A stretch of 64,000 nt of DNA, taken from a virus. Shown here in pieces: positions 2,517-38,626 of the stretch. A program made the translations under genes and the position numbers. Where the stretch lies: the IMG/VR virus record IMGVR_UViG_3300030093_000028, positions 4,052 to 68,051 of that record. One strand, given 5' to 3'. The first letter of the stretch is position 1. Every line of letters begins with the position of its first letter. The notes beneath the pieces were generated by a model. The model saw only the letters and a list, made by a program, of their open reading frames with translations. It ran no database searches and was not told where the DNA came from.

Positions 2517-4298
2517 TTAGTACATATTTGGTCTTTTATTCAATCTTTTCATTTGTTTTGCATAAGATTTAATATCAAAAGAAACCTGCGGCTTCTGAAG
2601 AATTTCACGCTCAAGCTGACACTGAACCCAATAATTATACGCCAATGAACTGTAGCGGTCTTTTCTCATACCAGTCTTTTCTATAATTTTGATATTAGTT
2701 CCCTTTATCTCATGCTCAAGCTTTGTAAGCTCATATATCAACAATGTCGTTTGTATATACGGCATTTTATATTGTAATTGCTCAAAAGGCTGCATCTTTG
2801 CATAGCCTTTTATTTTATCTTTTAAGATTTCTTCTGCTTCGAATTCCGAGACAAGAAGATTAATCTTACCCTGTTTAAATCCGCTTCTAAGCAAAATACA
2901 AATCTCATTATTAAAAGAAGCGCTCGCTTTAATAGACCAAATAACTTCTGGGGCATTAGACACTTTACATCTAGCAGCCATATCCTTATCATTACAACAA
3001 GATAGAGCGCCATATAACTCGCCTGTCTCTGGGTCTACCATGTCTCTGATAAGAGCATCGAATACGCCAAGACCGCTGCCATTCGTATCGATTACAAGGT
3101 CTGTGCATTTATACAGTTTAAACAATCTGCGAATCACAAGCGCCAATTCATCTGTATTAAGACCCTCGTGGTTTTCGAGATATATTATATTAGACACGTA
3201 ATTATTATTATTCGTAGGAATTGCGCTGTTAATTATAATTGCACTGGCATCGTTTCTATGCTTATTAGAAGCCATAAGCGCAACGTCTACAGACATAATT
3301 CGTCTTTCATTTGTTGCTAAATCTGGTATCTTATATGTCTTATTGTTTATAAGTGATGGCGGATATACTGCTGTTTGCAAAGTTCTTCTGCATCCGATAT
3401 CGTCAAATGAGAAGAAAGCGCCTTCTGTATCTCCGAAGAACAAGCAGTCCATCTCCATGCTCCACTTGACTTCATCGAAGTCTTGTTCAGACATCTCATC
3501 TTCAATTTGTTCACGTGATAACAAACCTTCTTTTACAGAAACTTGATACGGTAAGCCACAGATAAAATACTTCTTAGTATCATCAAGCATATTTACCGTA
3601 TAAGCCTTTGCCTTTTCAAAAGACCAATGGTTTTTATACCACGCCGAACTCATATAGAACTCTTTATTTCGTTCTAGAAGATGTGCGTATTTTGGATTAT
3701 TTAAATAATTCGGCTGTCTTGGAGCTGTAAGGAATCGTCTCAATACCGTGTTAATAGTATCTAGGTCAACCATTCTAAACTCATCGACCAACAAAATATT
3801 AGCACGTGAACCACGACCAGAATCAGAAGCGGTAACGACTTTAATCCATGAACCATTTGCAAATTCAATTACGGCCTTATTTGCGCCAACGGCAGCATAT
3901 GTAATTTCTCGTCTAAGATTTTCAGAACCAAAACCATAGTTCTTCATGAAATCGTCTGTGATTTTTGACAAAACCTCATTCGCCTGTGGTCTTGTTGCAG
4001 ACGCAATACATATCTTTGTCTTTGGGAAAAGAATGCATCTAACAACACAAAATAATGCTGTTAGCCACGTTTTTCCCTGTCCTCGCGCAGCGATATACAT
4101 AAAGAAATTATTGTGCATCATTGCATACAATAATATCTTTTGAAATAGTTTTAATTTAATATTTAAGTAATCAGCAACAAAACGATGTGGGTTAGACCTA
4201 TAAAAACCAGCCCACAATGCAATACCGTTCATAATACGTTGTGATTTTTCATTAGCGATTTCTTTTTCAGATTTTTTTCTATTAACTTTATTCGCCAT
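2517..4298 (-). CDS. terminase large subunit
   Basis: Walker A-like ARGQGKTW near the N-terminus followed by a C-terminal nuclease-like domain. Length is 593 aa. Sits in a packaging-module context. Confidence 0.85.
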   Translation of the reverse strand: MANKVNRKKSEKEIANEKSQRIMNGIALWAGFYRSNPHRFVADYLNIKLKLFQKILLYAMMHNNFFMYIAARGQGKTWLTALFCVVRCILFPKTKICIASATRPQANEVLSKITDDFMKNYGFGSENLRREITYAAVGANKAVIEFANGSWIKVVTASDSGRGSRANILLVDEFRMVDLDTINTVLRRFLTAPRQPNYLNNPKYAHLLERNKEFYMSSAWYKNHWSFEKAKAYTVNMLDDTKKYFICGLPYQVSVKEGLLSREQIEDEMSEQDFDEVKWSMEMDCLFFGDTEGAFFSFDDIGCRRTLQTAVYPPSLINNKTYKIPDLATNERRIMSVDVALMASNKHRNDASAIIINSAIPTNNNNYVSNIIYLENHEGLNTDELALVIRRLFKLYKCTDLVIDTNGSGLGVFDALIRDMVDPETGELYGALSCCNDKDMAARCKVSNAPEVIWSIKASASFNNEICILLRSGFKQGKINLLVSEFEAEEILKDKIKGYAKMQPFEQLQYKMPYIQTTLLIYELTKLEHEIKGTNIKIIEKTGMRKDRYSSLAYNYWVQCQLEREILQKPQVSFDIKSYAKQMKRLNKRPNMY

Positions 4299-4309
4299 AC
4301 AAACACCGC

Positions 4310-5323
4310 CTAATCATCGTCTATAACGGTGTCGCCAAAAATGGCATCAAATAAAGCTTCGTTGTCTTTATCGTCATCATACTCTGGCTTTTCAACCGTA
4401 TACCTTTTCATAAATTTCGTATACAGTTTTGATAAGCCGTTTTTCAAATTCATCATCTTAGCAAGATGACCGCGAAAAAATACATCGATATAAAGACCTA
4501 TATTGTCAACATCTTTCAAATCATCCTCTGGCTCTGGAATCGGCCTTGTGTTTTCCCACTTGTCGATAAGCGTACCAAATGTCTGACTGTCAGATGTGGC
4601 ATCGCCAGAATTTTGTTTCGGCTGCAATTTGGCTGTGTCAAGAAGCTTCTGGAACGTAGCCGTCAAATCCTTTGTATCCTGCTTTGCCCTAGTAGCCTTT
4701 AACAACTCAAGCTGATTAAAACACAGCTGCTTAAAGACTTCTTCTTGTGCCTTTGTATTGCACTCGTGTCTAGTAGTCCAGTCGCAATACTCATTGTAAA
4801 GAAAAATATAATCATCATTATCGAAACCATTACCAAACAACTTTATCGCTTTGTCTATGGTTTCGTTCATGTCAGAGTCATCATCTGAATATATTGATAT
4901 CGGCTTATTATTAAACTTTGCTTCATTATATCTTTCTTCTAACGTTCTATCATAACCACCTCTGTACTGTCTAAGTGGTGAAATCGAGATATAAGAAGAT
5001 ATGAGAGAGCATGTTAAATCGCCATCTTCCATTCTTTTAACAGTGGCATTATATGCATCATCGCAAAAATATACATCTAAAAACATGCATATTCGCTCAA
5101 CGGCTTTTTTTTCTGGGTTTGCATATCCGTTGGTTTTATATACGTTTAAATAATTATAATAAATTTTATTAATGCATTCTTTGCACCACGGCATCTTTCC
5201 ATATGAAGCATATAAGTCACTATTTGATTTATAAAAATCTTTTGACTTAAGCTCCTTACCACAACAAGCACAATGCAGTGTCGAAGTGGAGTCATCATTT
5301 TTTCTAGCTGTTCTTCCCGCCAT
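4310..5323 (-). CDS. hypothetical protein with N-terminal Cys4 zinc finger; possible terminase small subunit
   Basis: CACCGK...CKEC motif. Lies directly upstream (minus sense) of terL, with a 12-nt gap. Confidence 0.4.
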   Translation of the reverse strand: MAGRTARKNDDSTSTLHCACCGKELKSKDFYKSNSDLYASYGKMPWCKECINKIYYNYLNVYKTNGYANPEKKAVERICMFLDVYFCDDAYNATVKRMEDGDLTCSLISSYISISPLRQYRGGYDRTLEERYNEAKFNNKPISIYSDDDSDMNETIDKAIKLFGNGFDNDDYIFLYNEYCDWTTRHECNTKAQEEVFKQLCFNQLELLKATRAKQDTKDLTATFQKLLDTAKLQPKQNSGDATSDSQTFGTLIDKWENTRPIPEPEDDLKDVDNIGLYIDVFFRGHLAKMMNLKNGLSKLYTKFMKRYTVEKPEYDDDKDNEALFDAIFGDTVIDDD

Positions 5324-7386: not shown

Positions 7387-7422
7387 TAAACATATAACCT
7401 TAATAGTATGTTATATGTTTAA
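7387..7422 (-). terminator. 13-bp-stem hairpin overlapping the stop codon of the 966-aa gene
   Basis: TTAAACATATAAC-N11-GTTATATGTTTAA, followed (minus sense) by TTTAAATTTACTGATTT. Confidence 0.45.
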
Positions 7423-10319
7423 ATATTCTGGTCGCGTGACTTTTGAGTTTCGCGCTGTTTTTTCTTTCTTAATCTGGCAAGTTCGCGCTTGTGCTCTTGC
7501 GTACATTCATGACATCTACATGTTTTTGTATCCTTGATACCGACTTCAAACCATTCTCCACAGTCCACGCATTGCACGTCTCGCGTCTCTCGCTTTACAT
7601 TACGAGAAAGATTATCATAAACGATATCTCCATAACACAGCCAAAGAGCCATCTTATTTTTGCCACCATTGATACCGTAAAGAAACTTCACGAGAATATC
7701 GACAATCTTAAAATCATCGTATCCAAACGAAGAAAGCTCTTCATATATCTCCTTAGAAATCTTTCTATACTTTAAATCGCGGCGCATCTTAGATTTTGAC
7801 ATATCGTCAGAAGAAAAACCCTTAACCGCATCGTTCAATGCAAACTGATACTTCTTATTCAGTTCACAATACTTAACAATCAACGGATCGGTTTCTTCCT
7901 TGATAATCTTACCTCTGTCTGTAAACGATATCCTGCATTCCGTTCTAACATCTCTCATCATAAGTGCATAATCAATCTTATCAAGGCCAAGCTTTCTGCA
8001 ATTGATTCTCGGATTCGGAATAATATCATTAAGCTTATTGACGAGACTGTTGTTGATATCAGATACCTGATGCAGCTTTTTATCCTTCGCATATACAAAG
8101 AAATGAGGGAGAGGGTCTTTAGTAAAACCAGTTATCAGCTCCTTTTCGTAATCTGGTCTTTCTGGTTTATACAACGTTTTAGCATAGTCGATTACAAAAT
8201 TATTCTCCATGCAAAGAAGTCTAATTACATCAATTGCACGTCTCTTATCTTCGTTTGTACCAGATATGAACACCTCGCTGTTCCAAATCTTAGAGATGTT
8301 ATTGCTGTATATTCCGATATTTCCACCAACAAATGCAGCATGAAGTCCACCGTAGATTGCAGCGTTATCAAGATGTACTGGCTCAGCTTTTCGCATATTG
8401 TAGTAAAGCGGCACAATGTCAAACTTCTTAAGATTTCTTTCCGCAACTGCAATAAGAGTCTTATCTGCAACAACTAACGATTTGTCCCCATCAACATCAA
8501 ATTGAAGAATCTTACTAATCATGTCCTTGCAGCTTGTGTATACGGCATCTGTGCCAAACCACTCTCTAACACTATCCTTTCTATCTCCATACGCATAGCA
8601 GGCAACATTTTTTCTAATAGCATGTTCCATGAAAAGATGAGGAGAGCGAAGGCAATCAAGCTTTTCATCTTTTCTAAACAACCAACAGAACACCTCTCCG
8701 TCTTCAAGCAGGCCGTCAGGATTATCTTTGCCCATAAACCAATGCTCGCAAGCGGCATAGAAGTCTGGAAGTAAAAATGTATACTTGCCATGAACCTTCA
8801 GCTTTCCAGCTTTGAATCTTTTGACCATGCTATCTTTGATATCTCTCAACTGAGACTTTGCATATTCATCATTCAACAAAGCTGGGTAAAGGTCGATAGC
8901 TTTTTGAAAAGCGGTCTTATTTGTATTATACGGCGTTGCACCGAACACATCCTTAATACTCTCAACGGAACCGCATAAATTCTCAAGCTTATTTGTTGAC
9001 TGGTAGGCAATATCTGCAAGCTCATCATCGGTAACATCAGTCAATGTCTGAAGCATCTGATAATTGATAGTAGCGTCTTTGATGCGCTCTTCCTCGACAT
9101 TAGTTACGCCAGCTGTACACCCATATCTCTTGAACATCTCCTTATATTGATCCCAAGATTCATAATATTTGTTCATCTTAAACTGAGATTTGGTAAAGAT
9201 AATTTGAATATCTTCATCAACGATGTTATGCTCTTTGCCATATATATCCTTGATAACAGGAGAGCATTCATTCACTTCGATGAACTTCTTAAAGTCAAAA
9301 GCGCCAAGAAGACCCTTTACCCACGGTAGCCTAACCATACGATTTCTACCAAGACAAGGCAACATCATTCCCGCTCCATCAGTATGGGGGATAGGCACAT
9401 TGCCAGTTATCCTCTTGATGGAATAGTCCGCATCGTCAATTAAATCATATGTACCAATAACATCAGTCTCAAAATCATCGATAACGATAGTCTTGTCAAT
9501 GTCGAACTCATTCCATACATCGGTTGCAGAATTTGCAAGCGCCATATAAGCAAGATGCTTATTGGGATTGTTACCGCCATGTGCATTGATGTCGTCAATC
9601 GTCAACCCGCACATAATCGTCTTCTCATGCTTTTTCCAAGTTGACTCTTTGACGAATACACATTTCTTTGTGCGAATCTGCCCAGCAGAAGAAGTGAAGT
9701 AAATATACTTCTCGCCATTGTATTCGAAACCATTGTAAATCAAGTCTTTAATCATATCGAAATAATAGACCTGAATAACCATGAAGTCTTCGCATAGCTC
9801 ATCTGGCTTGGCACCGATGGTTCTTGTGAAATATGAATCGAATACAGAAATGATGTTCTTTTCTGATACTTGGTTATCACGAAGCATTCTTGTGTGGTGT
9901 CTACCGTCTGACGCAATATTCGATTCAACCTTATTAGACAGAATGGTAAGTAGTCTTTCCTTAGTTTCGTTGATCTTTGTGTTTTTAAGAGATACCAGAT
10001 TCTTCAATCGGCGATACTCGCAACCAAGCTCACTCAGCTCTTTGCTATCATCTCCAAACAAAGAAAAATCATATTCGTCCTTAGCAATAGATGCAAGACC
10101 ATCTTTGTCAACACCGTAAGACTCAAACTTAGACTCAATGTTTCGGACACCGACTATTGTTTTCTTTGTCTTGCCATCATTGCCTTTGATAACAGCGCCA
10201 TTTAGCAGTTGATTCCTTTCACTTCTCAGCTTGTGATTAAGCCAGTGAAGGGATGACTCTCTATTGTCATAAAAGTTCCCAGTGTCTAGGGAGTAGATGT
10301 CTATCTGCTTATCGAGCAC
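7419..10319 (-). CDS. large protein with C-terminal zinc ribbon; putative single-subunit two-barrel RNA polymerase (YonO-like)
   Basis: 966 aa. The segment ...CLRSPHLFMEHAI...ILQFDVDGDKSLVVAD (aa ~556-618) resembles the beta-prime R-x-P-x-L ... NADFDGD catalytic double-psi beta-barrel signature. C-terminal motif is CVDCGEW...CRCHEC. There is no Walker motif and no PolA/PolB motif. Confidence 0.4.
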   Translation of the reverse strand: MLDKQIDIYSLDTGNFYDNRESSLHWLNHKLRSERNQLLNGAVIKGNDGKTKKTIVGVRNIESKFESYGVDKDGLASIAKDEYDFSLFGDDSKELSELGCEYRRLKNLVSLKNTKINETKERLLTILSNKVESNIASDGRHHTRMLRDNQVSEKNIISVFDSYFTRTIGAKPDELCEDFMVIQVYYFDMIKDLIYNGFEYNGEKYIYFTSSAGQIRTKKCVFVKESTWKKHEKTIMCGLTIDDINAHGGNNPNKHLAYMALANSATDVWNEFDIDKTIVIDDFETDVIGTYDLIDDADYSIKRITGNVPIPHTDGAGMMLPCLGRNRMVRLPWVKGLLGAFDFKKFIEVNECSPVIKDIYGKEHNIVDEDIQIIFTKSQFKMNKYYESWDQYKEMFKRYGCTAGVTNVEEERIKDATINYQMLQTLTDVTDDELADIAYQSTNKLENLCGSVESIKDVFGATPYNTNKTAFQKAIDLYPALLNDEYAKSQLRDIKDSMVKRFKAGKLKVHGKYTFLLPDFYAACEHWFMGKDNPDGLLEDGEVFCWLFRKDEKLDCLRSPHLFMEHAIRKNVACYAYGDRKDSVREWFGTDAVYTSCKDMISKILQFDVDGDKSLVVADKTLIAVAERNLKKFDIVPLYYNMRKAEPVHLDNAAIYGGLHAAFVGGNIGIYSNNISKIWNSEVFISGTNEDKRRAIDVIRLLCMENNFVIDYAKTLYKPERPDYEKELITGFTKDPLPHFFVYAKDKKLHQVSDINNSLVNKLNDIIPNPRINCRKLGLDKIDYALMMRDVRTECRISFTDRGKIIKEETDPLIVKYCELNKKYQFALNDAVKGFSSDDMSKSKMRRDLKYRKISKEIYEELSSFGYDDFKIVDILVKFLYGINGGKNKMALWLCYGDIVYDNLSRNVKRETRDVQCVDCGEWFEVGIKDTKTCRCHECTQEHKRELARLRKKKQRETQKSRDQNI

Positions 10320-11865: not shown

Positions 11866-12589
11866 ATAGCATCTACGATGCTGACGATATGTAGATATAT
11901 TACCTAATTATAATGTCATATTAATTAAATACGAAGCATAGATAACGGTATCACCAATTATATCTTAATGCTAAATAGCTTTATATCAAGTGTATATTTC
12001 TTGTTATTTATATTGTCCTCAATAACATATTAGATTGAATATTAATAGCTTCTATATCTATGTTGTTGATATGTAGTTATATTTATATGCATAACCGGAT
12101 AGTTTCCTTTTTTAAATTGCCACCAATTCAATAGCTTATCTTATAGCATATTTATTTGAATATAGATCGCTTTGTTGTATTGGTGTTTATTTGGATGTTT
12201 ATATGTCTGCAAATATAGATCGTATACGTATTTCGATTGTTATCTTATGTAGTTGCATATTGGTTTCCTATCTATTGCCATCTGGTCATACCGTATATTT
12301 TACCGTTTATAAATTGTTATATATGTAGTTATATATTGTTGGTATGTAGATAGATTTCCAGAGTGATATAGATGAATTTATAGTGGGTCAGATATTTTTT
12401 TCGGTTGTGTTTAGATGAAACACATAGCTAGGATCAACAATAAAAAAAACGAACCAGAAGTTTTAATACACCCCCATACCCCTATCTACCTGCGGTTTTG
12501 TCGTTTTGTAGTGTAGTTTATTACCCCTACAATGTGCAATAAAAACGGTGGGGGCATGAGTGCAAAAAAAACAGGGGGTATTGCACTTG

Positions 12590-12680
12590 AAAAACTAACC
12601 CCCTATAGCCCACACAAAAACTAACCCCCCATATAACGTTCAAAAAAACCAACCCCCCATATAACGTTCAAAAAAACCAA
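12590..12680. repeat. C-tract repeats, including a tandem 28-bp duplication of AACCCCCCATATAACGTTCAAAAAAACC
   Basis: The two copies lie at 12623-12650 and 12651-12678. The related unit AAAAACTAACCCCC lies just upstream. Confidence 0.6.
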
Positions 12681-12710
12681 CCCCCTGTTTAGAACGAACG
12701 ACACAACGAA

Positions 12711-12896
12711 AGTTTTCAACAGGTTTTCAACATATCTAATACCATTAAATAGTTTTCAACAGAGTTTTCAACAACTTTTCAACAGATCCATGACTTTTCA
12801 ACAGAGTTTTCAACAACTTTTCAACAGATCCATGACTTTTCAACAGAGTTTTCAACAAAAAAAGTTGTACAACAAAGTTTTCAACAAACCTAATAC
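12711..12896. repeat. array of ~11 TTTTCAACA direct repeats, including an exact 42-bp tandem duplication
   Basis: The unit cttttcaacagatccatgacttttcaacagagttttcaacaa occurs twice (12775-12816 and 12817-12858). The region is non-coding, and ORF 12790-12981 is a repeat artefact. Confidence 0.65.
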
Positions 12897-28380: not shown

Positions 28381-28716
28381 ATGTTCGACTATAGTAAATA
28401 CGGATTTTCCAATGGCGATAAGACCGAGCTTAAACGTGTTCTCGAAGACAAGATAGAGTTTGAATCGGTAAGTATAGATACATATATAGCAAGACCATAT
28501 ACATTTATTTTAAGGTCTTCTGAAAAAAATGTCACAGCTTCTCTAGAGGACGATAGAGTGATAATCAGACGGAATGATCGCTTTAAAACTACTATTTCAA
28601 ATTTCTCTTTTGACAGCGTTTGTGATGTGCAGTTTAAATTGACGGAAGATTTTAGGTGTTCTATATTTTTTACCATTGCAAATATCTGCTATAATATCAT
28701 TGCTTATGTTTGTTGA
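28381..28716 (+). CDS. hypothetical protein (111 aa)
   Basis: SD GAGAGGAG then ATG 28381. Confidence 0.45.
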   Translation: MFDYSKYGFSNGDKTELKRVLEDKIEFESVSIDTYIARPYTFILRSSEKNVTASLEDDRVIIRRNDRFKTTISNFSFDSVCDVQFKLTEDFRCSIFFTIANICYNIIAYVC

Positions 28717-28719
28717 TAC

Positions 28720-30340
28720 ATATTTAGTCCGCTGATGCAATGCGGACTGCTACGAAAAAAGTTTTCAAAATTTTCTAAAAAGTTGTTGACATAGATATAG
28801 GCACCATGTAATATAGTTGATGTCAGAAAGAGACGCGGACAAATCGCAGATCAATCTGATGAGCACCTTGAGAAAAGAAGATGGAAAAAGTTCAAAAAAG
28901 TTCTTGCAACTGATAAAGTTAGATGCTATAATATCTGACACAGAGAAACGGAAGTTTCCAGTTGCACCTTGATATTTACATAGAGTATCAGCGTTGAGAA
29001 ATCAACGCGAAGGATTGTTTCAACCATGTGTATTCACGACTCCACGTGGTCATGGGCGTGTTCGAGGAGTCCCACTATGGAGGATACCCCATAGGTAGGC
29101 TTTGCCAGATGTAGGTAACTGGCTTCTGGTAGAAGAGGTGGAAAATCTCAACCGAGCAGACACGGCGCTGTGATGAAACGCAAGAAAATGGTATCGCTAA
29201 CTGGTTGCTATCGCAATAGATATGGAATATATTCCATTGAACCAAGTAGAGGGTAGTGTGGCAGCTATGCCAATCGCTTGGAGTGCCATAAGATAGTTGT
29301 CCAATTGATGCTGGTAATCAGCTATAAGACCAGACGCGAGTACGAGTAGCCCAAAGTTGGATTGTATTAGAAGATTAATATGCTGAATGGTGGGTGAAAG
29401 TTGTTGGTAGCCAATCCAGCCATAGATTGACGTAAAGTCGGGATGGAAAGATATGGGGTCGCTCCCTGTGTCTCAGCTCCATTTCCTATGTTACCGAATT
29501 ACCACTACGTTTTATGAAGGTAAGGCGAAGGCCTGAGACAATCTTTCGCGTTGGTTTGCTTGACCGACAAAGCGAGGTTCGATTCTGTGTTAGTCTTTTG
29601 GTTGATTTCACTAACGCAGATGGTACGGTACGATTCCGTAGACGGAAAATGTTTTGACTCCTTTCTGTTTTGGTTTAACGGTTGTTCCTTGCGTGTGAGT
29701 TATTTGACTTACGTTTTCATTTTCCGTCAACGCTCAGTCCCAAGGTTTACGATGGAGATAGCTACCTGACAAGTCTTGGGCGCATGGTAACGGCGTAATG
29801 TTACCCCTTGTCTTAACGGAGGAAGCGGACTGTTAAGCGTACACCGTTGCGTAAAATCGGTAGCGTTGGAAGGTCTGCCAGCGCGGACGGTATTTAAAAT
29901 AAGTGACCCCTCTGGTAGCTGGTGAGGACTTTAGTAAGCTACCACCGTCTATGGAGTATATATTATCATTGCGTGTTGTTGTATGGTATGAACAGATTTA
30001 TTTCCAGAATCTGTCATCGACAGAATGGGCAGGCCAGAGTCGAGTAGTCGTTCAATTTGCTCTTCTTTTGAGATGTCATCGTACTCGATAAGAGCATATA
30101 GACCATGCTTGAAAAGTATATATTCCATAGACGGTAATGTGACTTGGCGGTGTGGCGAAATCGGTATACGCTATGCTTTAATGGGCAAAACAGGTAGCTC
30201 CTGTATGCAAGTTCAAATCTTGCCACTGCCAATGGAACGTTACCGTCTATTATAATGGCTATGGGGGATTCGCACAACGGTTAGGGCAAGGGCCTTATAA
30301 GCTCTAGAAGAGTGTTCAACTCACTCATCCCCCACCATAA
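28720..30340 (+). ncRNA. ~1.6-kb ORF-free, GC-richer, densely self-complementary region: candidate large structured non-coding RNA adjacent to the tRNA array
   Basis: No ORF above 90 aa on either strand. Many long-range complementary pairs, for example GACGGAAAATG (29644) / CATTTTCCGTC (29720), GGTAGCT...AGCTACC (29913-29946) and CTGTCATCGACAG (30011-30023). Contains the tRNA-like element 30146-30231. Composition differs from the flanking coding DNA. Confidence 0.35.
30146..30231 (+). other. tRNA-like element with long variable arm but non-canonical anticodon arm (pseudo-tRNA or part of the large RNA)
   Basis: Acceptor GGCGGTG/CACTGCC pairs (with one G-U). T-arm GCAAG-TTCAAAT-CTTGC. Extra arm ACAGG-TAGCT-CCTGT. 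The 17-nt anticodon arm does not fold canonically. Confidence 0.3.
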
Positions 30341-30341
30341 T

Positions 30342-30414
30342 GGAGTCGTAGCTCAGTCGGAAGAGCAGGGGACTTTTAATCCCAAGGTCGTGGGTTCGAT
30401 TCTCACCGACTCCA
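30342..30414 (+). tRNA. tRNA-Lys (anticodon TTT), CCA encoded
   Basis: Acceptor GGAGTCG/CGACTCC. D-arm GCTCAGTCGGAAGAGC. Anticodon loop CTTTTAA. T-arm GGTCGTGGGTTCGATTCTCACCGAC. Confidence 0.8.
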
Positions 30415-30418
30415 CCAC

Positions 30419-30492
30419 GGACGCATGGCGCAGCTGGTTAGCGCAGATGCTTTACACGCATAAGGTCGTAGGTTCAAATCCTACTGTGTCCA
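30419..30492 (+). tRNA. tRNA-Val (anticodon TAC), CCA encoded
   Basis: Acceptor GGACGCA/TGTGTCC. D-arm GCGCAGCTGGTTAGCGC. Anticodon loop TTTACAC. T-arm GTAGGTTCAAATCCTAC. Confidence 0.75.
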
Positions 30493-30498
30493 CCAATT

Positions 30499-30580
30499 GC
30501 CGCAGTAATCCTTTAAAGACGAGGGTTGGACTGTAAATCCAATGTCTATGACTGGCTAGGAGCGTTACCTAGATGCGGCA
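30499..30580 (+). tRNA. putative type-II tRNA (anticodon GTA, Tyr-like) with atypical D- and T-arms
   Basis: Acceptor GCCGCAG/ATGCGGC (6/7 paired), disc A, then CCA. Anticodon arm TTGGA-CTGTAAA-TCCAA. Long variable region. The T-like hairpin CTAGG-AGCGTTA-CCTAG lacks the TTCRA motif. Confidence 0.4.
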
Positions 30581-30586
30581 CCAAAT

Positions 30587-30658
30587 GTCGGCTTCGTCTA
30601 ACGGTTAGGACATCACCCTTTCAAGGTGGAAACACGGGTTCGATTCCCGTAGCCGATA
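30587..30658 (+). tRNA. tRNA-Glu (anticodon TTC), CCA encoded
   Basis: Acceptor GTCGGCT/AGCCGAT. Anticodon arm TCACC-CTTTCAA-GGTGG. T-arm ACGGGTTCGATTCCCGT. Confidence 0.75.
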
Positions 30659-30667
30659 CCAAAACTC

Positions 30668-30749
30668 GGGGAAGTGATGGAATGGCAGACATCGGAGACT
30701 TAAAATCTCTTGCTCATAGAGCGTGAGGGTTCGAATCCCTTCTTCCCTA
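30668..30749 (+). tRNA. tRNA-Leu (anticodon TAA), long variable arm, CCA encoded
   Basis: Acceptor GGGGAAG/CTTCCCT. Anticodon arm GGAGA-CTTAAAA-TCTCT. Variable arm TGCTCATAGAGCG. T-arm GAGGGTTCGAATCCCTT. Confidence 0.75.
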
Positions 30750-30803
30750 CCAGATATATCAAGATATGGTATAATATCTTTTATATATAACAATTGATTG
30801 TGT

Positions 30804-30877
30804 GCGCCATTAACTCAGCTGGATAGAGTAACAGACTTCTAATCTGTAGGCCGTAGGTTCGAATCCTACATGGCGCA
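30804..30877 (+). tRNA. tRNA-Arg (anticodon TCT)
   Basis: Acceptor GCGCCAT/ATGGCGC. D-arm ACTCAGCTGGATAGAGT. Anticodon arm ACAGA-CTTCTAA-TCTGT. T-arm GTAGGTTCGAATCCTAC. Flanked by the 10-bp inverted repeat CAATTGATTG / CAATCAATTG. Confidence 0.75.
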
Positions 30878-30896
30878 CACAATCAATTGTACAATT

Positions 30897-30969
30897 GCCG
30901 ATGTGACTCAATTGGAAGAGTAACTGATTTGTAATCAGTCTGTTGCAGGTTCAAGTCCTGTCATCGGCT
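30897..30969 (+). tRNA. tRNA-Thr (anticodon TGT), CCA encoded
   Basis: Acceptor GCCGATG/CATCGGC. D-arm ACTCAATTGGAAGAGT. Anticodon arm ACTGA-TTTGTAA-TCAGT. T-arm GCAGGTTCAAGTCCTGT. Confidence 0.75.
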
Positions 30970-31015
30970 CCATGATTTTTTCTTGTCATAGTTGACATTA
31001 TATAACAATGGGGGC

Positions 31016-31025
31016 GTGGATATAA
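31016..31025 (+). promoter_or_regulatory. extended -10 promoter TGgaTATAAT inside the tRNA region
   Basis: Perfect TATAAT with TG at -15/-14. A TTGACA lies 23 nt upstream. Confidence 0.4.
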
Positions 31026-31066
31026 TCACGATAAAGCCAGATTCTCATGGATGATAATGGCGAAAC

Positions 31067-31176
31067 TGTCTCTGGTTCGAATCCAGACGTGTCTCAGTAT
31101 AGACGGAAAATAAGTAGCCATGTACTTATGATTATGTTATTTTACAAAAGACATGTGGTGTAGTTGGTAACGCACC
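31067..31176 (+). other. tRNA-like fragments: a 3'-half-like T-arm (TCTGG-TTCGAAT-CCAGA-CGTGTCT) and a downstream 5'-half-like acceptor/D-arm (AGACATG-TG-GTGT-AGTTGGTAAC-GCAC)
   Basis: The canonical GGTTCGAATCC T-loop is at 31070-31085. The 5'-half-like segment is at 31148-31176. The two 7-nt acceptor strands are mutually complementary (one G-U) but in permuted order. Confidence 0.3.
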
Positions 31177-31184
31177 CCACCTTC

Positions 31185-31273
31185 GGGGCAGACAACTAAC
31201 GGGGAGTTAGGTCTGACTGCTAATCAGAACGTACTTGTTCATCAAGTATTGGCTTCGAATGCCAGTTGCCCCG
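31185..31273 (+). tRNA. tRNA-Ser (anticodon GCT), long variable arm, CCA encoded
   Basis: Acceptor GGGGCAG/TTGCCCC (one G-U). D-stem AACT/AGTT. Anticodon arm TCTGA-CTGCTAA-TCAGA. Variable arm CGTACTTGTTCATCAAGTAT. T-arm TTGGCTTCGAATGCCAG. Confidence 0.7.
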
Positions 31274-31281
31274 CCATATAA

Positions 31282-31308
31282 TACCTGCCCCTATTGGCAG
31301 TGGTTTTT
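31282..31308 (+). terminator. intrinsic terminator CTGCC-CCTATT-GGCAG followed by TGGTTTTT, after the tRNA array
   Basis: A second hairpin plus T-run lies at 31455-31490 (GGATGTG-N9-CGCATCC-TGTTTTTTG). Confidence 0.5.
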
Positions 31309-31514
31309 AAGATTTTCCCGAAAAAAATCTTTTGCGGTAGAATAGGCAACGCCGCACGCTATTCGAGAGGATAGCAAGCCTTCTTGCTAGGAGATAAGCA
31401 AGTGCTTTCACGGAGTAATTGGTGAGCTGAAACACCGTAAAAACAGATCCTCTGGATGTGCCGTGAATACGCATCCTGTTTTTTGTTTGAATGTTGTACG
31501 TAGAAAGGGTTGGT

Positions 31515-32513
31515 ATGATAACGTTTGTTGTCGGAATTATTGCATTGCTTATTGCAATTCCATTCATTGTCTTTGATATTCGCACAAAGATTCCCGAACC
31601 TGTCGAGGACACCAATATTCTTGGGAAGTCATATATTAAAAACGAGACGGATATTAAGACTGTAAAATTTGCGCACACTTGCGCTCGTGGCGTTGCAGTA
31701 GTATGTATTGTCTTTGCCTTTGCATTTATCGGTGGTTCTTGCATCTATACACAGGACACTGGTGAGGTTTGCGTAATTCGTAATCTCGGTGGTTCTCTTG
31801 CCGATTCAACTTCTGAAGCTGGTTTCCATATCAAGATGCCTTGGCAAGATGTTATTACGTATGATGTACGCAACAATCTTATCAATTTCTATGGCGATAC
31901 CGATTACAAGGTTGATGGTGGCTCATATGAGGGTAAGCAGGTATCAATCAATGATAAGTCTGGTGCCAGTGCCAACGTGGATATTCAGGTCAACTATAGC
32001 TTGAATCCAGATTCAGCGCTTAGCCTTTATTCTGAGTATGGCACGCAGGAAAGCTTTGTTGAGAAGTATATTTCCAATGATGTTCGCGCTGTTACCCGTG
32101 AGGTTTCTGGTAAGTTTGATACTGTTACCATGCTGACTGATCGCTCGCAGTTTACCAAGGCTGTTCAGGATGCGCTGACTAAGAAGTGGAATAAGATTGG
32201 CCTTACTGTTGAGCAGGTAAGCGTACAGGATGTACGCTATCCTGAGTCTATTACCGATAGCTATTCACAGGCTCAGGCAGCTGAGGTGGCAAAGCAGAAG
32301 GCGCAGAATGAGCAGGAGACTGCCAAGGTTCAGGCTGAGACTAAGAAGATTGAAGCTCAGGGTGAAGCAGATGCAAACGCCGTTCTTGCACAGAGCCTTA
32401 ATGAGCAGGTGTTGCAGCAGCATTATATCGAAGCGCTAAAGGATATTGGCAAGGAAGGCAATCTTGTCGTGGTTCCCAATGGCTCAACTCCAATGATTAA
32501 CACTGGCAAGTAA
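31515..32513 (+). CDS. SPFH/band-7 (HflC/flotillin-like) membrane protein with C-terminal coiled coil
   Basis: N-terminal TM segment MITFVVGIIALLIAIPFIVF. SPFH core GEVCVIRNLGG...HIKMPWQDV. C-terminal heptad-rich AQAAEVAKQKAQNEQETAKVQAETKKIEAQGEADANAVLAQ. Followed by terminator GAGAGGGTGTGTCC-N5-GGATACACCCTCTT-T7 (32631-32675). Confidence 0.75.
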   Translation: MITFVVGIIALLIAIPFIVFDIRTKIPEPVEDTNILGKSYIKNETDIKTVKFAHTCARGVAVVCIVFAFAFIGGSCIYTQDTGEVCVIRNLGGSLADSTSEAGFHIKMPWQDVITYDVRNNLINFYGDTDYKVDGGSYEGKQVSINDKSGASANVDIQVNYSLNPDSALSLYSEYGTQESFVEKYISNDVRAVTREVSGKFDTVTMLTDRSQFTKAVQDALTKKWNKIGLTVEQVSVQDVRYPESITDSYSQAQAAEVAKQKAQNEQETAKVQAETKKIEAQGEADANAVLAQSLNEQVLQQHYIEALKDIGKEGNLVVVPNGSTPMINTGK

Positions 32514-32719
32514 TGTACATGCCTTGGAAACTTTAGGGTTGACCATGAAAGACGGATAGTTTCGGCTATGTGAGAGTAAACGACATGTCGTTGAAATCTT
32601 AACGCGAAAGCAATTGTGTTTAATATATGTAGAGAGGGTGTGTCCTTTTGGATACACCCTCTTTTTTTATGTCGAGATGATATAATATATACGTAAAGCA
32701 AATGTATTGGAGAATATAT

Positions 32720-34740: not shown

Positions 34741-35916
34741 ATGCAATTATATCTTGATTCAGCAGCAACAGCTAAGCCGAATAAGGAAGTTCTTGAAGCT
34801 GTCATGCCGTATTTAACTGACAACTTCTATAATCCGTCTTCAATCTATAGCAATGGCGTTAAAGTTAGACGTGCAATTGATAATGCTCGTGAGTCTATTG
34901 CTGGTTTTATCAACGCTGATACAGATGAAATCTTCTTTACATCAGGGTCAAGTGAATCAAATTGCTGGGCTATTCAGGGCTATTTGCTTGCTGGCGTTAT
35001 GGATATTTCTACTACTTCAATTGTCACGACCAAGATTGAACATAAGTCAATCATGGAATGTGTTGATGCTATGGAACGTTTTGGTAATGCAACTTATTAT
35101 TGTGACGTAACATATCTTGATGTTGACAAAGATGGCTTTGTTAATATGGAGCAGCTTGAGTCTGTATTTAAAGACCGCGAAGAGCCTGATTATTATGATA
35201 TCTTTGTGTCAATTCAGTTGGCAAATAATGAGGTTGGCACTATTCAAAACATTAAAGCTATCTCGGATGTTATCCATAAGTATGGTGGCGTGCTTCATGT
35301 GGATGCAACGCAAGCCTTTGGACAGATTCCCATTGATGTTAAGGCTATGGGAATTGATATGTTAAGTGCATCGGCGCATAAATTGGAAGGAGGGTTTAAA
35401 GGAGTTGGGTTATTATACAAGAAAAAAGACATTGAGATTCAGCCCATTATCTACGGTAGCCAGAACGCTGGATTACGCGGCGGCACTGAAAATGTTGCTG
35501 GTATTGTCGGCTTTGCGAAAGCCGTTGAACTCGCATCTGAGGAAATGGAAGACAAGCTGGCGTTATCTGTAAAGCGTGATTATTTTATTAACGAGCTTAC
35601 GAGAAATGGCTGCAAGCTAAATGGCGCTTCTGTTCATAGACTGCCAAATAACATTAATGTAATGTTGCCTGAAGGTATTGGCTCGGAAGAACTTCTATAT
35701 ATGCTTGACCTAGATGATATTCAGTGCAGTGCTGGTTCTGCCTGCAATAGTCATTCTAAGAAGCCATCATATGTACTCAAGGCTCTTGGATTGACGGATG
35801 AAGAAGCGGCAATGTCTGTTCGATTTACGATTTCTTCTGATATTACATATGAAGCCATTGATTATGTTGTTGAAAAAGTAGTAAAGATTATGAAGATTAT
35901 AAGGAATAGCAACTAA
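34741..35916 (+). CDS. IscS/NifS-like cysteine desulfurase (class V PLP aminotransferase fold)
   Basis: PLP-Lys motif SASAHKLEGGFKGVG. Active-site Cys loop CSAGSACNSHS (compare the IscS loop SSGSACTS). RGGTENVAGIVGFAKA. SD AAGGAG. Confidence 0.8.
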   Translation: MQLYLDSAATAKPNKEVLEAVMPYLTDNFYNPSSIYSNGVKVRRAIDNARESIAGFINADTDEIFFTSGSSESNCWAIQGYLLAGVMDISTTSIVTTKIEHKSIMECVDAMERFGNATYYCDVTYLDVDKDGFVNMEQLESVFKDREEPDYYDIFVSIQLANNEVGTIQNIKAISDVIHKYGGVLHVDATQAFGQIPIDVKAMGIDMLSASAHKLEGGFKGVGLLYKKKDIEIQPIIYGSQNAGLRGGTENVAGIVGFAKAVELASEEMEDKLALSVKRDYFINELTRNGCKLNGASVHRLPNNINVMLPEGIGSEELLYMLDLDDIQCSAGSACNSHSKKPSYVLKALGLTDEEAAMSVRFTISSDITYEAIDYVVEKVVKIMKIIRNSN

Positions 35917-35998
35917 ATCCGTTGCTTTGACGTGTTTGAAACTAAAACAGTTGCTATAATATAACGGTAACAGGTTGAGCATAGTAGAAAGGTTCGAT

Positions 35999-37183
35999 AT
36001 GCTAGACAAAAACGGCGAGCGTATGCTTGCATATACTGTAACAGTTGATAGTATCACGCCAATTGAAAAGGCTGATAACATTGAGCTTGCTCATGTTGGA
36101 GGTTGGAACGTAATTATTCGCAAGCATGAGTTTAATGCTGGCGACATGGCTGTCTTCTTTGAGATTGATTCTTTGCTACCAGAGACAGAGTGGTCTGAGT
36201 TTTTGCGCCCAAAGAAGTTTAAGGTAAAGACCTATAAGCTCGGAAAGTTTAATGTAGTTTCGCAGGGTTTGCTTCTTCCGATGAGCATTCTTCCAGATAA
36301 TAAGGAGTATGCTATCCACGAGGACGTGACAAATCTGCTTGGTATTAAGTATTATGTAGCCGAGGATAATGCTCGTAAGGCTAATTCTAATCCCAATGCC
36401 AAGTACAATAATATGTGCGCACGTAATACCAAGCTCGCAAAGAAGAAGTGGTGGAAGTGGCTGATGAAGCGTGCATGGGGTCGCAAGTTGCTGTTCGTTT
36501 TCTTTGGTCGCAAGAAGGATAATCCTAAGAACTGGCCTGTGTGGATTAAGAAGACGGATGAAGACCGCATTGAGAATGTCATGTTCATGCTTGAGGATAA
36601 GAATCCTTATGTCGTGACCGAGAAGATTGATGGCACTTCGACTACATTCTTCCTTGATTTGACTGGTCGTAAGCCTGATTTCGGTGTGTGTTCACGTAAT
36701 GTTCGCCAGATGGATGCAGATCAGAAGAACTTTGTTTCTGATATGTCTGGCATCGGAAACGTTTACTGGGAAATGGCATTCAAATACAATGTCGAGGATG
36801 CTCTTAAGGACATTGCAAAGAAGCGCAACCATAAGCATGTTGTACTACAGGGTGAGACGTATGGTGAGTCCGTACAGGGCAACAAGTACAAGCTTGATGA
36901 GCGCCGATTTGCCGCCTTCAATTTAATCTTTGACGGAGAGCGCCTTGGTTCTGTCGAAGCAAAGAAGATTCTAGCCGAGTACGATATTCCATTCGTGCCT
37001 ATTATTGATGATAACTATATCTTGCCCGATGCTGATGACTTTGAGGAGTTCAAGCAGTCTGCTGATGGCAAGAGTGTAATCAATAAGAAGTGTCTACGCG
37101 AGGGCTTTGTGTATCGTAGTCAGGATGGACAGCGCAGTTTCAAGAACGTTTCCCGCAAATTCTTGCTTAAAGCTGGTGAATAA
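35999..37183 (+). CDS. ATP-dependent RNA ligase (nucleotidyltransferase motif I KxDG) with N-terminal OB-like domain
   Basis: Motif I VTEKIDGTS. Motif IV-like EGFVYR. Motif V-like FKNVSRKFLLK. RBS GAAAGG then ATG 35999. Confidence 0.6.
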   Translation: MLDKNGERMLAYTVTVDSITPIEKADNIELAHVGGWNVIIRKHEFNAGDMAVFFEIDSLLPETEWSEFLRPKKFKVKTYKLGKFNVVSQGLLLPMSILPDNKEYAIHEDVTNLLGIKYYVAEDNARKANSNPNAKYNNMCARNTKLAKKKWWKWLMKRAWGRKLLFVFFGRKKDNPKNWPVWIKKTDEDRIENVMFMLEDKNPYVVTEKIDGTSTTFFLDLTGRKPDFGVCSRNVRQMDADQKNFVSDMSGIGNVYWEMAFKYNVEDALKDIAKKRNHKHVVLQGETYGESVQGNKYKLDERRFAAFNLIFDGERLGSVEAKKILAEYDIPFVPIIDDNYILPDADDFEEFKQSADGKSVINKKCLREGFVYRSQDGQRSFKNVSRKFLLKAGE

Positions 37184-38626
37184 ATGGACACTAGCACAAA
37201 GCCAGTGCTAGTGTGTATGGTGGGTTTACCCGCAAGTGGTAAATCCACCATTGCTTATAATCTAGCAATGGAAAATAATTATATTGTATTCAGCTCAGAT
37301 GCATTAAGAGAAGAACTTTATCTAGATATCAACGACCAAACTCATAACCATGAGCTGTTTGTGGAATTGCATAAGCGTATCAAGACGGCATTAAAAGAAG
37401 GTAATAATGTTATCTATGATGCTTGCAATTTAAGCTCTAAAAGGCGCGTTGCTTTCCTACAAGAGCTAAACCGCATCCCTTGTCGTAAAGAATGTATCAT
37501 TGCCGCTACTCCATATGAGCAATGTCTAAGGAATAATGCGAATAGAGACAGGTACGTACCAGATTATGTCATTGAGCGCATGTATAAACAATGGGAAACT
37601 CCTTATTGGTTTGAAGGTTGGGATGACATTGAGATTCATCACTGGAACGATAAAAGAAAAGATATTGACGAGTGGATTAATAGTTATATGGATTACGACC
37701 AAGATAATCCACATCATACATTAACTCTTGGTGAGCATTGTGTTTCTGTTGCTAACAAACTTAAAGATAACGATACCCTTTATTATGCTGGACTATTGCA
37801 CGATGTTGGAAAGCCATATACAAGGATGGAAAAAGACGTAGAGATTTATGTTCCAATACATGATTTTGAGGATTTATATGCTATATCAAATTATGGCAAT
37901 GTAAAAAATATTAAAACAAATAAGGTATTAAAGGGCAGAGATAATGGACATGGGTATCTAAGCGTTACATTGGGGAGCGAAACAAGAAAGAAGCGCTGTT
38001 ATATACACAGACTTGTAGCAGAACATTTTTTGGACATACCAGAGTGTTTAAAAAAATATAAGAAACTTGATGTTAATCATATTGATTCAAATAAATCAAA
38101 TAATTTTTATAAAAACTTAGAGTGGTGTACAAGAAGCCAAAATCAAAATCATGCATTTCAAACAAATCCAAATAGAAACGTTTCTGGTTTTGATAAATGG
38201 CAAAGTAAACTTTCATTTGGTGAAGTTGAGTCAATTAAATTTGTTAAAGAACATGCATGTTATACCAATAAAAAGATTGGAGATATGTTTGGTGTAGATG
38301 CGGCAACGGTATCAAGAATAATAAACAATAAGGCGTATATTACAGAGAATAAAGTTTTTAAGAAAAAAATATCGCCAATATTACCAATTGATCGTTGTAG
38401 ATATTATTCGCACGAACATGTTGGAGCGTATGACAGTTTATTCTTTGATTATCCTGTTGGTATTAACGCATTATTTGTTTCAGCCCTTATCTCAAATCAT
38501 ATGAAGCCATACGTATGGGAGAGAGACAACAACGAAAAAATGTATAATAAATATCTAAAATTGTGGGGCGATTATTTCATGCAATGTGTTATGATTCTAC
38601 ATGAAGCAGATAAGGCCGCACACTAA
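37184..38626 (+). CDS. P-loop polynucleotide-kinase-like domain plus HD phosphohydrolase, with an in-frame HNH (NUMOD4-HNH_3-NUMOD1) homing-endonuclease insertion splitting the HD domain
   Basis: Kinase P-loop GLPASGKST. HD motifs HHTL...LLHDVGK before, and HEHVG...ILHEADKAAH after, the insertion. The inserted ~aa 215-405 segment reads YAISNYGNVKNIK...VNHIDSNKSNN...NLEWCTRSQN. Its nt span (~37830-38400) is ~28 percent GC against ~40 percent in the flanks. The start codon overlaps the ligase stop (ATAAATG). Confidence 0.6.
   Translation: MDTSTKPVLVCMVGLPASGKSTIAYNLAMENNYIVFSSDALREELYLDINDQTHNHELFVELHKRIKTALKEGNNVIYDACNLSSKRRVAFLQELNRIPCRKECIIAATPYEQCLRNNANRDRYVPDYVIERMYKQWETPYWFEGWDDIEIHHWNDKRKDIDEWINSYMDYDQDNPHHTLTLGEHCVSVANKLKDNDTLYYAGLLHDVGKPYTRMEKDVEIYVPIHDFEDLYAISNYGNVKNIKTNKVLKGRDNGHGYLSVTLGSETRKKRCYIHRLVAEHFLDIPECLKKYKKLDVNHIDSNKSNNFYKNLEWCTRSQNQNHAFQTNPNRNVSGFDKWQSKLSFGEVESIKFVKEHACYTNKKIGDMFGVDAATVSRIINNKAYITENKVFKKKISPILPIDRCRYYSHEHVGAYDSLFFDYPVGINALFVSALISNHMKPYVWERDNNEKMYNKYLKLWGDYFMQCVMILHEADKAAH

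Follow-up and report, generated by a model that had tools for sequence, protein, structure and literature searches.

ROOL, a long RAGATH-36-family RNA and a tRNA array in a probable RNA operon of an uncultivated phage

What occupies some 1.6 kb without credible genes directly ahead of a phage tRNA array? The question is raised by a 64,000-nt stretch of viral DNA, positions 4,052 to 68,051 of IMG/VR record IMGVR_UViG_3300030093_000028, which we call the window and whose coordinates are used throughout. A first-pass annotation, made from the letters alone, noted a stretch free of open reading frames (ORFs) after the gene ending at 28716 and preferred to read it as one giant ornate non-coding RNA (ncRNA), possibly of a new family. 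The stretch is non-coding, structured and of the ornate kind that phages carry beside tRNAs, but it is neither one RNA nor a new family. We read 28780–31310, with a probability of about 85%, as an ncRNA operon of an uncultivated phage of ~130 kb, in which promoters are followed by a ROOL RNA, a RAGATH-36-family RNA, a hairpin, a tRNA-like element, tRNAs and a terminator. The host is probably a gut clostridial bacterium. The modules share one strand, with no strong terminator between them. From 5' to 3', with the tRNAs given further below, they are:

28786–28814, plus strand: promoter-like site A, TTGACA-17 nt-TAATAT, agreeing with the consensus at 10 of 12 positions
28904–28932, plus strand: promoter-like site B, TTGCAA-17 nt-TG-n-TATAAT, with an extended -10, from a consensus scan
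29000–29553, plus strand: ROOL RNA (Rfam RF03087), 554 nt, full length by the Rfam covariance model
29568–29949, plus strand: long RAGATH-36-family RNA, ~380 nt, from a sub-threshold match to Rfam RF03104 and from models R1 and R2
29944–29962 / 30117–30135, plus strand: hairpin with 19-nt arms, 18 of 19 positions complementary (95%), from a repeat search
30127–30140 / 30237–30250, plus strand: leader–trailer helix of 14 bp enclosing the tRNA-like element
30146–30232, plus strand: tRNA-like element, non-decoding, from ARAGORN and the Rfam tRNA model
31285–31308, plus strand: terminator-like hairpin CTGCCCCTATTGGCAG and T-run, from a terminator scan

The first large module is an ordinary member of the ROOL family, and the assignment is unambiguous. 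ROOL was among the candidate classes named at the outset, together with the proposal of an Rfam scan. Run over the whole window, that scan gave one large match, to 29000–29553 (293.3 bits; gathering score 99.1; E = 2.6e-66), with model positions 1–574 of 574 covered. The largest element of the supposed new family thus belongs to a known one. The cmscan alignment has nested and pseudoknotted helices with few non-standard pairs, and all conserved blocks are present in it: GGAUAC, CAAUAGA, GUGGCA, UGAAUG..GGGUGAAAGUU, GGGUCGCUCCC and GGCGAAGGCC. The 24-nt closing stem (28999–29022/29534–29557) was recovered independently by a repeat search. A search with the core block UGAAUGNNGGGUGAAAGUU gave more than 118 other viral loci. 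Fifteen were sampled, of which 14 are full-length ROOLs of 221–363 bits. The window copy falls in the middle of these 14 and is therefore unremarkable. Rfam also finds ROOL in relatives L004, L013, L016 and L022 (280–308 bits). Two relatives, L001 and L018, have swapped the terminal hairpin with full compensation, from AAGGC-GAAG-GCCUG to ACGAU-GAAG-AUCGG.

The 2017 description of ROOL presents an RNA of ~580 nt that occurs in phages and prophages and often lies near tRNAs (Weinberg et al. 2017, PMC5737381), and cryo-electron microscopy in 2025 showed that it forms hexameric or octameric RNA cages (PMC12286853, PMC12990946). The window copy shares with the family the full-length model match, including the closing stem and pseudoknotted helices, the phage context and a position upstream of a tRNA array. 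This array begins ~600–700 nt 3' of ROOL (tRNA-like element at 30146, tRNA-Ile at 30263); a same-strand tRNA follows within 600 nt in 25 of 69 ROOL-motif loci. The copy differs in a shorter variable hairpin, with ~20 nt deleted near model positions 377–396, and in its unusual 3' neighbour, the RAGATH-36-like RNA. The window copy adds an ordinary ROOL to those known and leaves the picture of the family unchanged. As a clean natural case of ROOL heading what appears to be an RNA-only operon from promoter to terminator, the locus could help to ask what role the cage has. Separately, the leader segment GCGTTGA (28983–28989) could pair with TCAACGC (29002–29008) in competition with the ROOL 3' strand.

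The second module begins 14 nt after the end of ROOL. A permissive Rfam scan matched 29621–29807 to RAGATH-36 (RF03104), an orphan motif, with 35.7 bits (gathering cut-off 70) and a 75-nt insertion in one hairpin; the E-value is 6.4e-5 with 3 kb scanned and 1.3e-5 with 29554–30150 alone scanned. A search of IMG/VR with the invariant hairpin TGGNNCGGTANGATTCCG gave 91 loci. About 70 of these have AACGCTYA downstream, and nearly all of those 70 also have GCGAGGTTCRA 22–130 nt upstream. The window carries the invariant RAGATH-36 core at 29621–29640 and 29729–29737, namely UGG, the hairpin NNCGG-UACGAUU-CCGNN and AACGCUYAG, the last of which comes after a variable hairpin in the family. Across loci the RF03104 scores are continuous from 150 down to 34 bits, which places the window element at the divergent end of one family.

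Two covariance models were built only from the RAGATH-36 loci of other phages, with the window's clade excluded. R1 represents a 3' domain (17 sequences, 19 pairs) and R2 a 5' four-way junction (22 sequences, 20 pairs). R1 has a single match in the 64-kb window, at 29861–29949 (35.9 bits, E = 7e-7), which covers the full model with all pairs standard. R2 matches 29568–29738 (59.9 bits, E = 2.6e-17), its only significant match in the window; the next has an E-value of 0.16. Over all loci, R1 found 66 matches (45 distinct) and R2 72 (55 distinct). In the 3' domain, 91.5% of cells are paired versus 34–47% with slid partners, and 18 of 19 pairs have changes on both sides. The corresponding values for the 5' junction are 96.7% versus 27–45%, and 13 of 20 pairs. 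Covariation occurs in helices P2, P3 and P4 of the junction and Pa, Pb and Pc of the 3' domain. These alignments were fitted to the R1 and R2 models, a bias that favours the structure. Nevertheless, the slid-partner controls and compensatory changes in a plain MAFFT alignment of close relatives speak for a real signal. For the 3' domain, RNAalifold recovered Pa only from the raw MAFFT alignment, since Pb and Pc were out of register there, and was replaced by a hand-drawn structure, a covariance model and realignment. RAGATH-36 is the middle of a larger, well-covarying RNA with tRNA-like features.

The unit that emerges consists of a 5' box, P2, UGG, P3, a variable P4, AACGCUUAG, P5, P6 and the 3' domain, in that order. 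The 3' domain contains hairpin Pa (GGAAAUGCUGCC), helices Pb and Pc and a conserved AAAGUGCAUCC joiner. An additional helix, P1, is possible between CGCUU of AACGCUUAG and AAGCG of the 5' box. With 250–400 nt, the conserved unit is about double the length of the 128-nt Rfam model or more. To Rfam's RAGATH-36 it adds the 5' box, helix P2 and the three-helix 3' domain; these flanking parts are an extension made in this analysis and lie outside the Rfam definition. In the window the parts are:

29568–29738, plus strand: 5' four-way junction, with 5' box, P2, UGG, P3 and a long P4
29570–29583, plus strand: 5' box, AAGCG-AGGUUCGAU
29624–29640, plus strand: T-arm-like hairpin P3, 5 bp with loop UACGAUU
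up to 29807, plus strand: P5 and P6
29812–29837, plus strand: clade-specific hairpin, which covaries (CUUAAC/GUUAAG versus CUUAGC/GCUAAG)
29861–29949, plus strand: 3' domain, with Pa, Pb and Pc
29886–29891 with 29944–29949, plus strand: helix Pb, GACGGU with ACCGUC

The window RNA shares with RF03104 the invariant core, the order of helices and an ncRNA-rich phage setting, and the 5' box and 3' domain that flank bona fide loci are present as well. It differs in the 70–75 nt insertion in P4, a shorter P5 and the extra hairpin at 29812–29837. In the literature searched, no paper mentions the motif: the main text of PMC5737381 never refers to RAGATH, and a 2026 preprint on small RNA assemblies is silent too. 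What is new here is the extended RAGATH-36 architecture and its habit of abutting tRNAs, described below, and nothing else; the rest belongs to known families. The dense complementary segments reported at first are real, and each can now be assigned to a helix or an insert. The pair at 29637–29651/29718–29732, found again by the repeat search, is the P4 stem; GGTAGCT/AGCTACC (29914–29920/29937–29943) is helix Pc in the 3' domain; and CTGTCATCGACAG falls inside a 116-nt insert (29979–30094) that most relatives lack.

Some RAGATH-36 loci of other phages have features of their own. In the canonical clade the invariant 5' box doubles as the end of a 38-amino-acid ORF (...FGGMYLIIWETWFTLKRGSMP*), found at 1672–1788 on the minus strand of L031 and at the same position in L043, L072, L074, L076, L103 and L108. 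This ORF varies at third codon positions and has its stop in the loop of P2. Three loci have two 3'-domain matches each: L067 (7135–7265 and 9116–9217), L076 (3392–3522 and 393–494) and L009 (2338–2408 and 2411–2490). L043 has two 5'-junction matches.

In the window, the RAGATH-36-family RNA runs into the hairpin with 19-nt arms (29944–30135). Both arms are conserved in 11 relatives, the loop is hypervariable in length and sequence, and the ACCGUC strand of helix Pb also forms part of the 5' arm. The tRNA-like element noticed in the first reading at 30146–30231 follows. ARAGORN calls it 'tRNA-???' with a 2-nt 'anticodon', and the Rfam tRNA model scores it at 40.5 bits. Acceptor, D, long variable and T arms are present, and in relatives compensatory changes affect four stems: acceptor, anticodon, variable and T. 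Instead of the canonical 7-nt loop, the 'anticodon' arm has a 4-bp stem, UGCU/GGCA (CGGA/UCCG in L022), and an invariant 6-nt loop, UUAAUG, so the element cannot decode normally. A role as suppressor or quadruplet decoder was considered and rejected on the same grounds, since the covarying 4-bp stem fixes the 6-nt loop and makes ordinary decoding unlikely. The leader–trailer helix around the element is kept in 10 of 11 relatives, with a change from AAUGU/ACAUU to AACGU/ACGUU. Copies of ACCGUC/GACGGU are common to Pb, the 19-nt-arm hairpin and the leader–trailer helix, and the three could stack on or exclude one another. Further along, a perfect 21-nt inverted repeat (30790–30810/30870–30890) encloses tRNA-Arg(tct), extends its acceptor stem by 14 bp and resembles the leader–trailer helix.

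The canonical tRNAs begin with Ile(tat) at 30263, ahead of the gene at 30342 with which the first-pass annotation began the array. In total there are seven canonical tRNAs, each called by ARAGORN and Rfam, and two or three degenerate genes found by relaxed ARAGORN:

30263–30337, plus strand: tRNA-Ile(tat)
30342–30417, plus strand: tRNA-Lys(ttt)
30419–30495, plus strand: tRNA-Val(tac)
30499–30583, plus strand: degenerate Tyr(gta)-like gene, relaxed ARAGORN only, D and T loops non-canonical, CCA encoded
30587–30661, plus strand: tRNA-Glu(ttc)
30668–30752, plus strand: tRNA-Leu(taa)
30804–30878, plus strand: tRNA-Arg(tct)
30897–30972, plus strand: tRNA-Thr(tgt)
31010–31095: weak Trp-like gene, relaxed ARAGORN only
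31185–31276, plus strand: degenerate tRNA-Ser(gct)-like gene, the last of the array, relaxed ARAGORN

The homologue of the Ser(gct)-like gene in L013 is called tRNA-Ser(gct) at default ARAGORN settings.

Both ends of the putative operon carry candidate transcription signals, which at the 5' end are two promoter-like sites of sigma-70 type in tandem. Promoter-like site A, known here as a consensus match only, is conserved in 11 of 11 aligned relatives. Site B has a predicted start ~60 nt before ROOL, and its region is 93% identical over 31 nt in L025, a relative without ROOL. Promoter and leader are tandemly duplicated (28776–28880 and 28893–28975), and this duplication is conserved in relatives; the two copies share AAAAAGTT, a -35/-10 pair and GCACCTTGA. 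The motif CACCTTGAKA was considered as a phage-wide promoter or leader motif and discarded. It has two exact copies only, both in the duplicated block upstream of ROOL, and so reflects local duplication. L025 has two similar promoter–leader blocks ~480 nt apart. At the other end, the right-hand boundary first set at 31310 coincides with the terminator-like hairpin and T-run at 31285–31308, which likely mark the end of the RNA operon. From 28940 to 31285 there are just two other plus-strand terminator-like matches, both inside helices of the RAGATH-36-like RNA and with weak T-runs. Judged from these signals, all modules probably form one transcription unit. A 'long leader of the tRNA operon', another suggestion of the first reading, describes correctly that everything is co-oriented with no strong terminator between, and is otherwise not right.

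The association of RAGATH-36-type RNAs with tRNAs extends beyond the window. A tRNA of varying identity (Lys, Glu, Gly, Met, Ile, Gln or Leu) follows 10 of the 45 distinct 3' domains, which end -1 to +5 nt before it. In the canonical high-scoring clade a ribosome-binding site (RBS) and an ORF follow instead. About one fifth of distinct RAGATH-36-type RNAs thus end where a tRNA begins, which offers a testable route by which they could be made, through RNase P. A genome scan found seven family members in metagenome-assembled genomes of gut Clostridia (Ruminococcus, Roseburia, Oscillospiraceae) and one in a Prevotella bin; none of these is a close relative of the window. A place to look for the function of RAGATH-36-type RNAs is tRNA metabolism in phages of gut Clostridia.

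If the modules are co-transcribed, a single precursor would run from ~28940 (and/or ~28815) to ~31308. Host RNase P and RNase Z would mature it at the tRNAs and the tRNA-like element, with RNase III possibly acting at the long hairpins. A cut by RNase P at the 5' end of a tRNA would also make the 3' end of the RNA upstream, and in other phages the abutting tRNA would in this way define the 3' end of the RAGATH-36-type RNA. Structured RNAs whose processing is punctuated by tRNAs include MALAT1 with its mascRNA, mitochondrial transcripts and, in the tRNA cluster of phage T4, the stable RNAs called 'species 1 and 2'. The likeness is that a structured non-tRNA RNA lies in or against a tRNA array and has its 3' end at the 5' end of a tRNA or tRNA-like element, so that RNase P could define that end. 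By analogy with mascRNA, the non-decoding tRNA-like element, which keeps acceptor, D and T arms without a usable anticodon loop, may serve as processing punctuation in the window's clade. The analogy is one of mechanism only, and the sequences are unrelated. Released ROOL should, by likeness to the solved ROOLs, self-assemble into a hexameric or octameric cage.

Several results weigh against the operon and the family assignment. The RF03104 score is half the gathering cut-off (35.7 versus 70 bits), and two loci of other phages, L003 (39.7 bits) and L009 (34.1 bits), likewise fall below it. Helix P1 (AAGCG/CGCUU) is invariant across R2 matches and so cannot be tested by covariation. The minimum free energy fold of 29568–29951 is no stabler than those of shuffled sequences (z = -0.63), which is not significant, and fold stability is for this reason not used as evidence. 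Promoter-like matches are not enriched in the scanned region relative to shuffled sequence (7 found, 6.8 expected). We infer both co-transcription and the sites of processing, and do so only from strand, spacing and consensus scans. Finally, the second RNA of the window has no abutting tRNA and lies 195 nt from the tRNA-like element, so the definition of the 3' end by RNase P that is suggested for other phages may not apply directly in this clade.

A different view of the RAGATH-36-like element is that it acts in cis, as a leader or processing scaffold that guides or gates the maturation or expression of the following tRNA or ORF. Its orientation is always that of the next gene, which is a tRNA 0–5 nt away or an ORF with its RBS. 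In the window's clade, the ACCGUC/GACGGU copies shared by Pb, the 19-bp hairpin and the leader–trailer helix would allow a conformational switch, and canonical loci have an overlap between the 5' box and the end of the 38-amino-acid ORF. On the other hand, the varying identity of the downstream tRNA indicates that there is no specific partner. A length of 250–400 nt, a conserved multi-domain fold and invariant single-stranded boxes are more typical of trans-acting or catalytic RNAs, and some phages have two copies. We consider a cis role unlikely, though with a real chance of being right.

A more specific proposal for the RNA after ROOL is doubtful, and we offer it tentatively. In this proposal it is full-length RAGATH-36, a two-domain RNA of 250–400 nt in which the 5' box is invariant, a 5-bp stem with loop UACGAUU mimics a T-arm and an invariant UGG could make a contact like that at the tRNA elbow. 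It would reside inside phage tRNA arrays, be released when RNase P cuts the abutting tRNA and here be joined to ROOL and a non-decoding tRNA-like element. An interdigitated double T-loop, which would bind the tRNA elbow, is a related conjecture. If true, the locus would hold a three-part RNA unit for tRNA or translation supply, or for defence against anticodon nucleases.

The reading preferred in the first-pass annotation, in which a single giant ornate RNA from a new family fills all 1.6 kb, is very improbable. Its best points are that 28700–29964 is conserved as a unit (82–97%) in close relatives, that the gap between ROOL and the next module is just 14 nt and that no strong internal terminator is present. 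Yet a complete ROOL, closed by a stem of its own, fills 29000–29553, and outside the window's clade the two RNAs occur apart. Nine loci with RAGATH-36-family RNA in other phages (L003, L009, L031, L041, L074, L077, L079, L088 and L094) were scanned with Rfam, and none has a ROOL match. Conversely, the second RNA is present in 0 of 67 other ROOL-motif loci, and a recurrent pairing of ROOL with RAGATH-36, which we had considered, is rejected by the same count. More distant relatives of the phage, whose upstream protein is 42–68% identical, have no ROOL, and two of them keep a weak match to the 3' domain. Each RNA is found without the other; the region is a string of independent modules, and their juxtaposition is specific to the window's clade. 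That clade consists of uncultivated phage contigs of ~70–130 kb in IMG/VR. Megablast of 28700–31350 against annotated phages returned short tRNA matches only, so the region has no annotated close relative among them.

Even less probable is a classical large RNA, be it what is left of a self-splicing intron, a transfer-messenger RNA (tmRNA), RNase P RNA or GOLLD. Size, structure and the tRNA neighbourhood would be compatible with one. However, the Rfam scan of 28600–31600 has no match to a group I or II intron, tmRNA, RNase P or GOLLD at E ≤ 1, ARAGORN at default settings finds no tmRNA, and ROOL and the RAGATH-36-family RNA account fully for the sequence. GOLLD, which is RF02032 in the Rfam copy used and not RF01998 as first cited, has in common with ROOL that it is a large ornate phage RNA beside tRNA arrays that forms cages, but it is unrelated to the elements of the window in sequence and fold. 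The two can share a stretch: L123 has both ROOL and GOLLD in one tRNA-rich stretch (7558–8229 and 12269–12780). In L121, ROOL adjoins a tmRNA gene (4082–4706 and 3098–3399).

Small proteins missed by ORF callers are the weakest explanation and scarcely credible: several ORFs of 50–87 amino acids exist on both strands, and the sole candidate with an ATG near a promoter (28817/28820–28972, 50–51 amino acids, after site A) was rejected as a gene because runs of A shift its frame in most of 11 close relatives and its ATG is lost in L004 and L010, while the others overlap covarying helices or sit in the insert that most relatives lack. Comparison of 28717–30145 with the 11 relatives found no conserved ORF. 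The ORF-free character reported at first is borne out, all ORFs having at most 87 amino acids and overlapping RNA elements. The higher GC reported with it holds against the sequence just upstream (0.42–0.52 in 28850–30650 versus 0.32–0.36) but not against the downstream genes at 31500–32600, which also have 0.41–0.49.

Other structured RNAs may occupy the same slot in relatives of the phage. Three relatives without ROOL have ORF-poor blocks of ~800 nt before the tRNAs: L023 (7389–8259), L024 (7370–8320) and L025 (7399–8180). The blocks of L023 and L025 fold very stably (z = -7.5 and -8.4) and have no Rfam match at E ≤ 0.01. Those of L023 and L024 are ~96% identical to each other, neither resembles that of L025, and both have a weak match to the RAGATH-36-type 3' domain (22–23 bits). 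These blocks may be other, undescribed structured RNAs.

Phage proteins encoded in the window include an integrase-family protein, Pol III alpha and a DnaB-like helicase, among others; the helicase shares 41% identity with the one from Clostridium phage c-st. About 3.5 kb 3' of the tRNA array, 34741–38626 on the plus strand encodes a class V aminotransferase, an RNA ligase (PF09414 with an OB domain) and a protein with AAA_33 kinase, HD and NUMOD4/HNH domains. This trio looks like a cluster for tRNA repair or modification. Together with the tRNA array, the RNA ligase and kinase–phosphatase cluster 5 kb downstream suggests, speculatively, a link to tRNA supply, tRNA repair or translation during infection.

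Two further features of the window lie outside the RNA operon. A structured-looking leader at 31340–31470, with a terminator-like hairpin and T-run, precedes a Band_7/SPFH gene (31491–32513); it has no Rfam match at E ≤ 1 and could be an attenuator or another cis-regulator. On the minus strand, 7419–10319 encodes a 966-amino-acid protein that matches Pfam RdRP (PF05183, 8e-12), the fold of which we take to be that of the YonO-type phage-encoded RNA polymerases.

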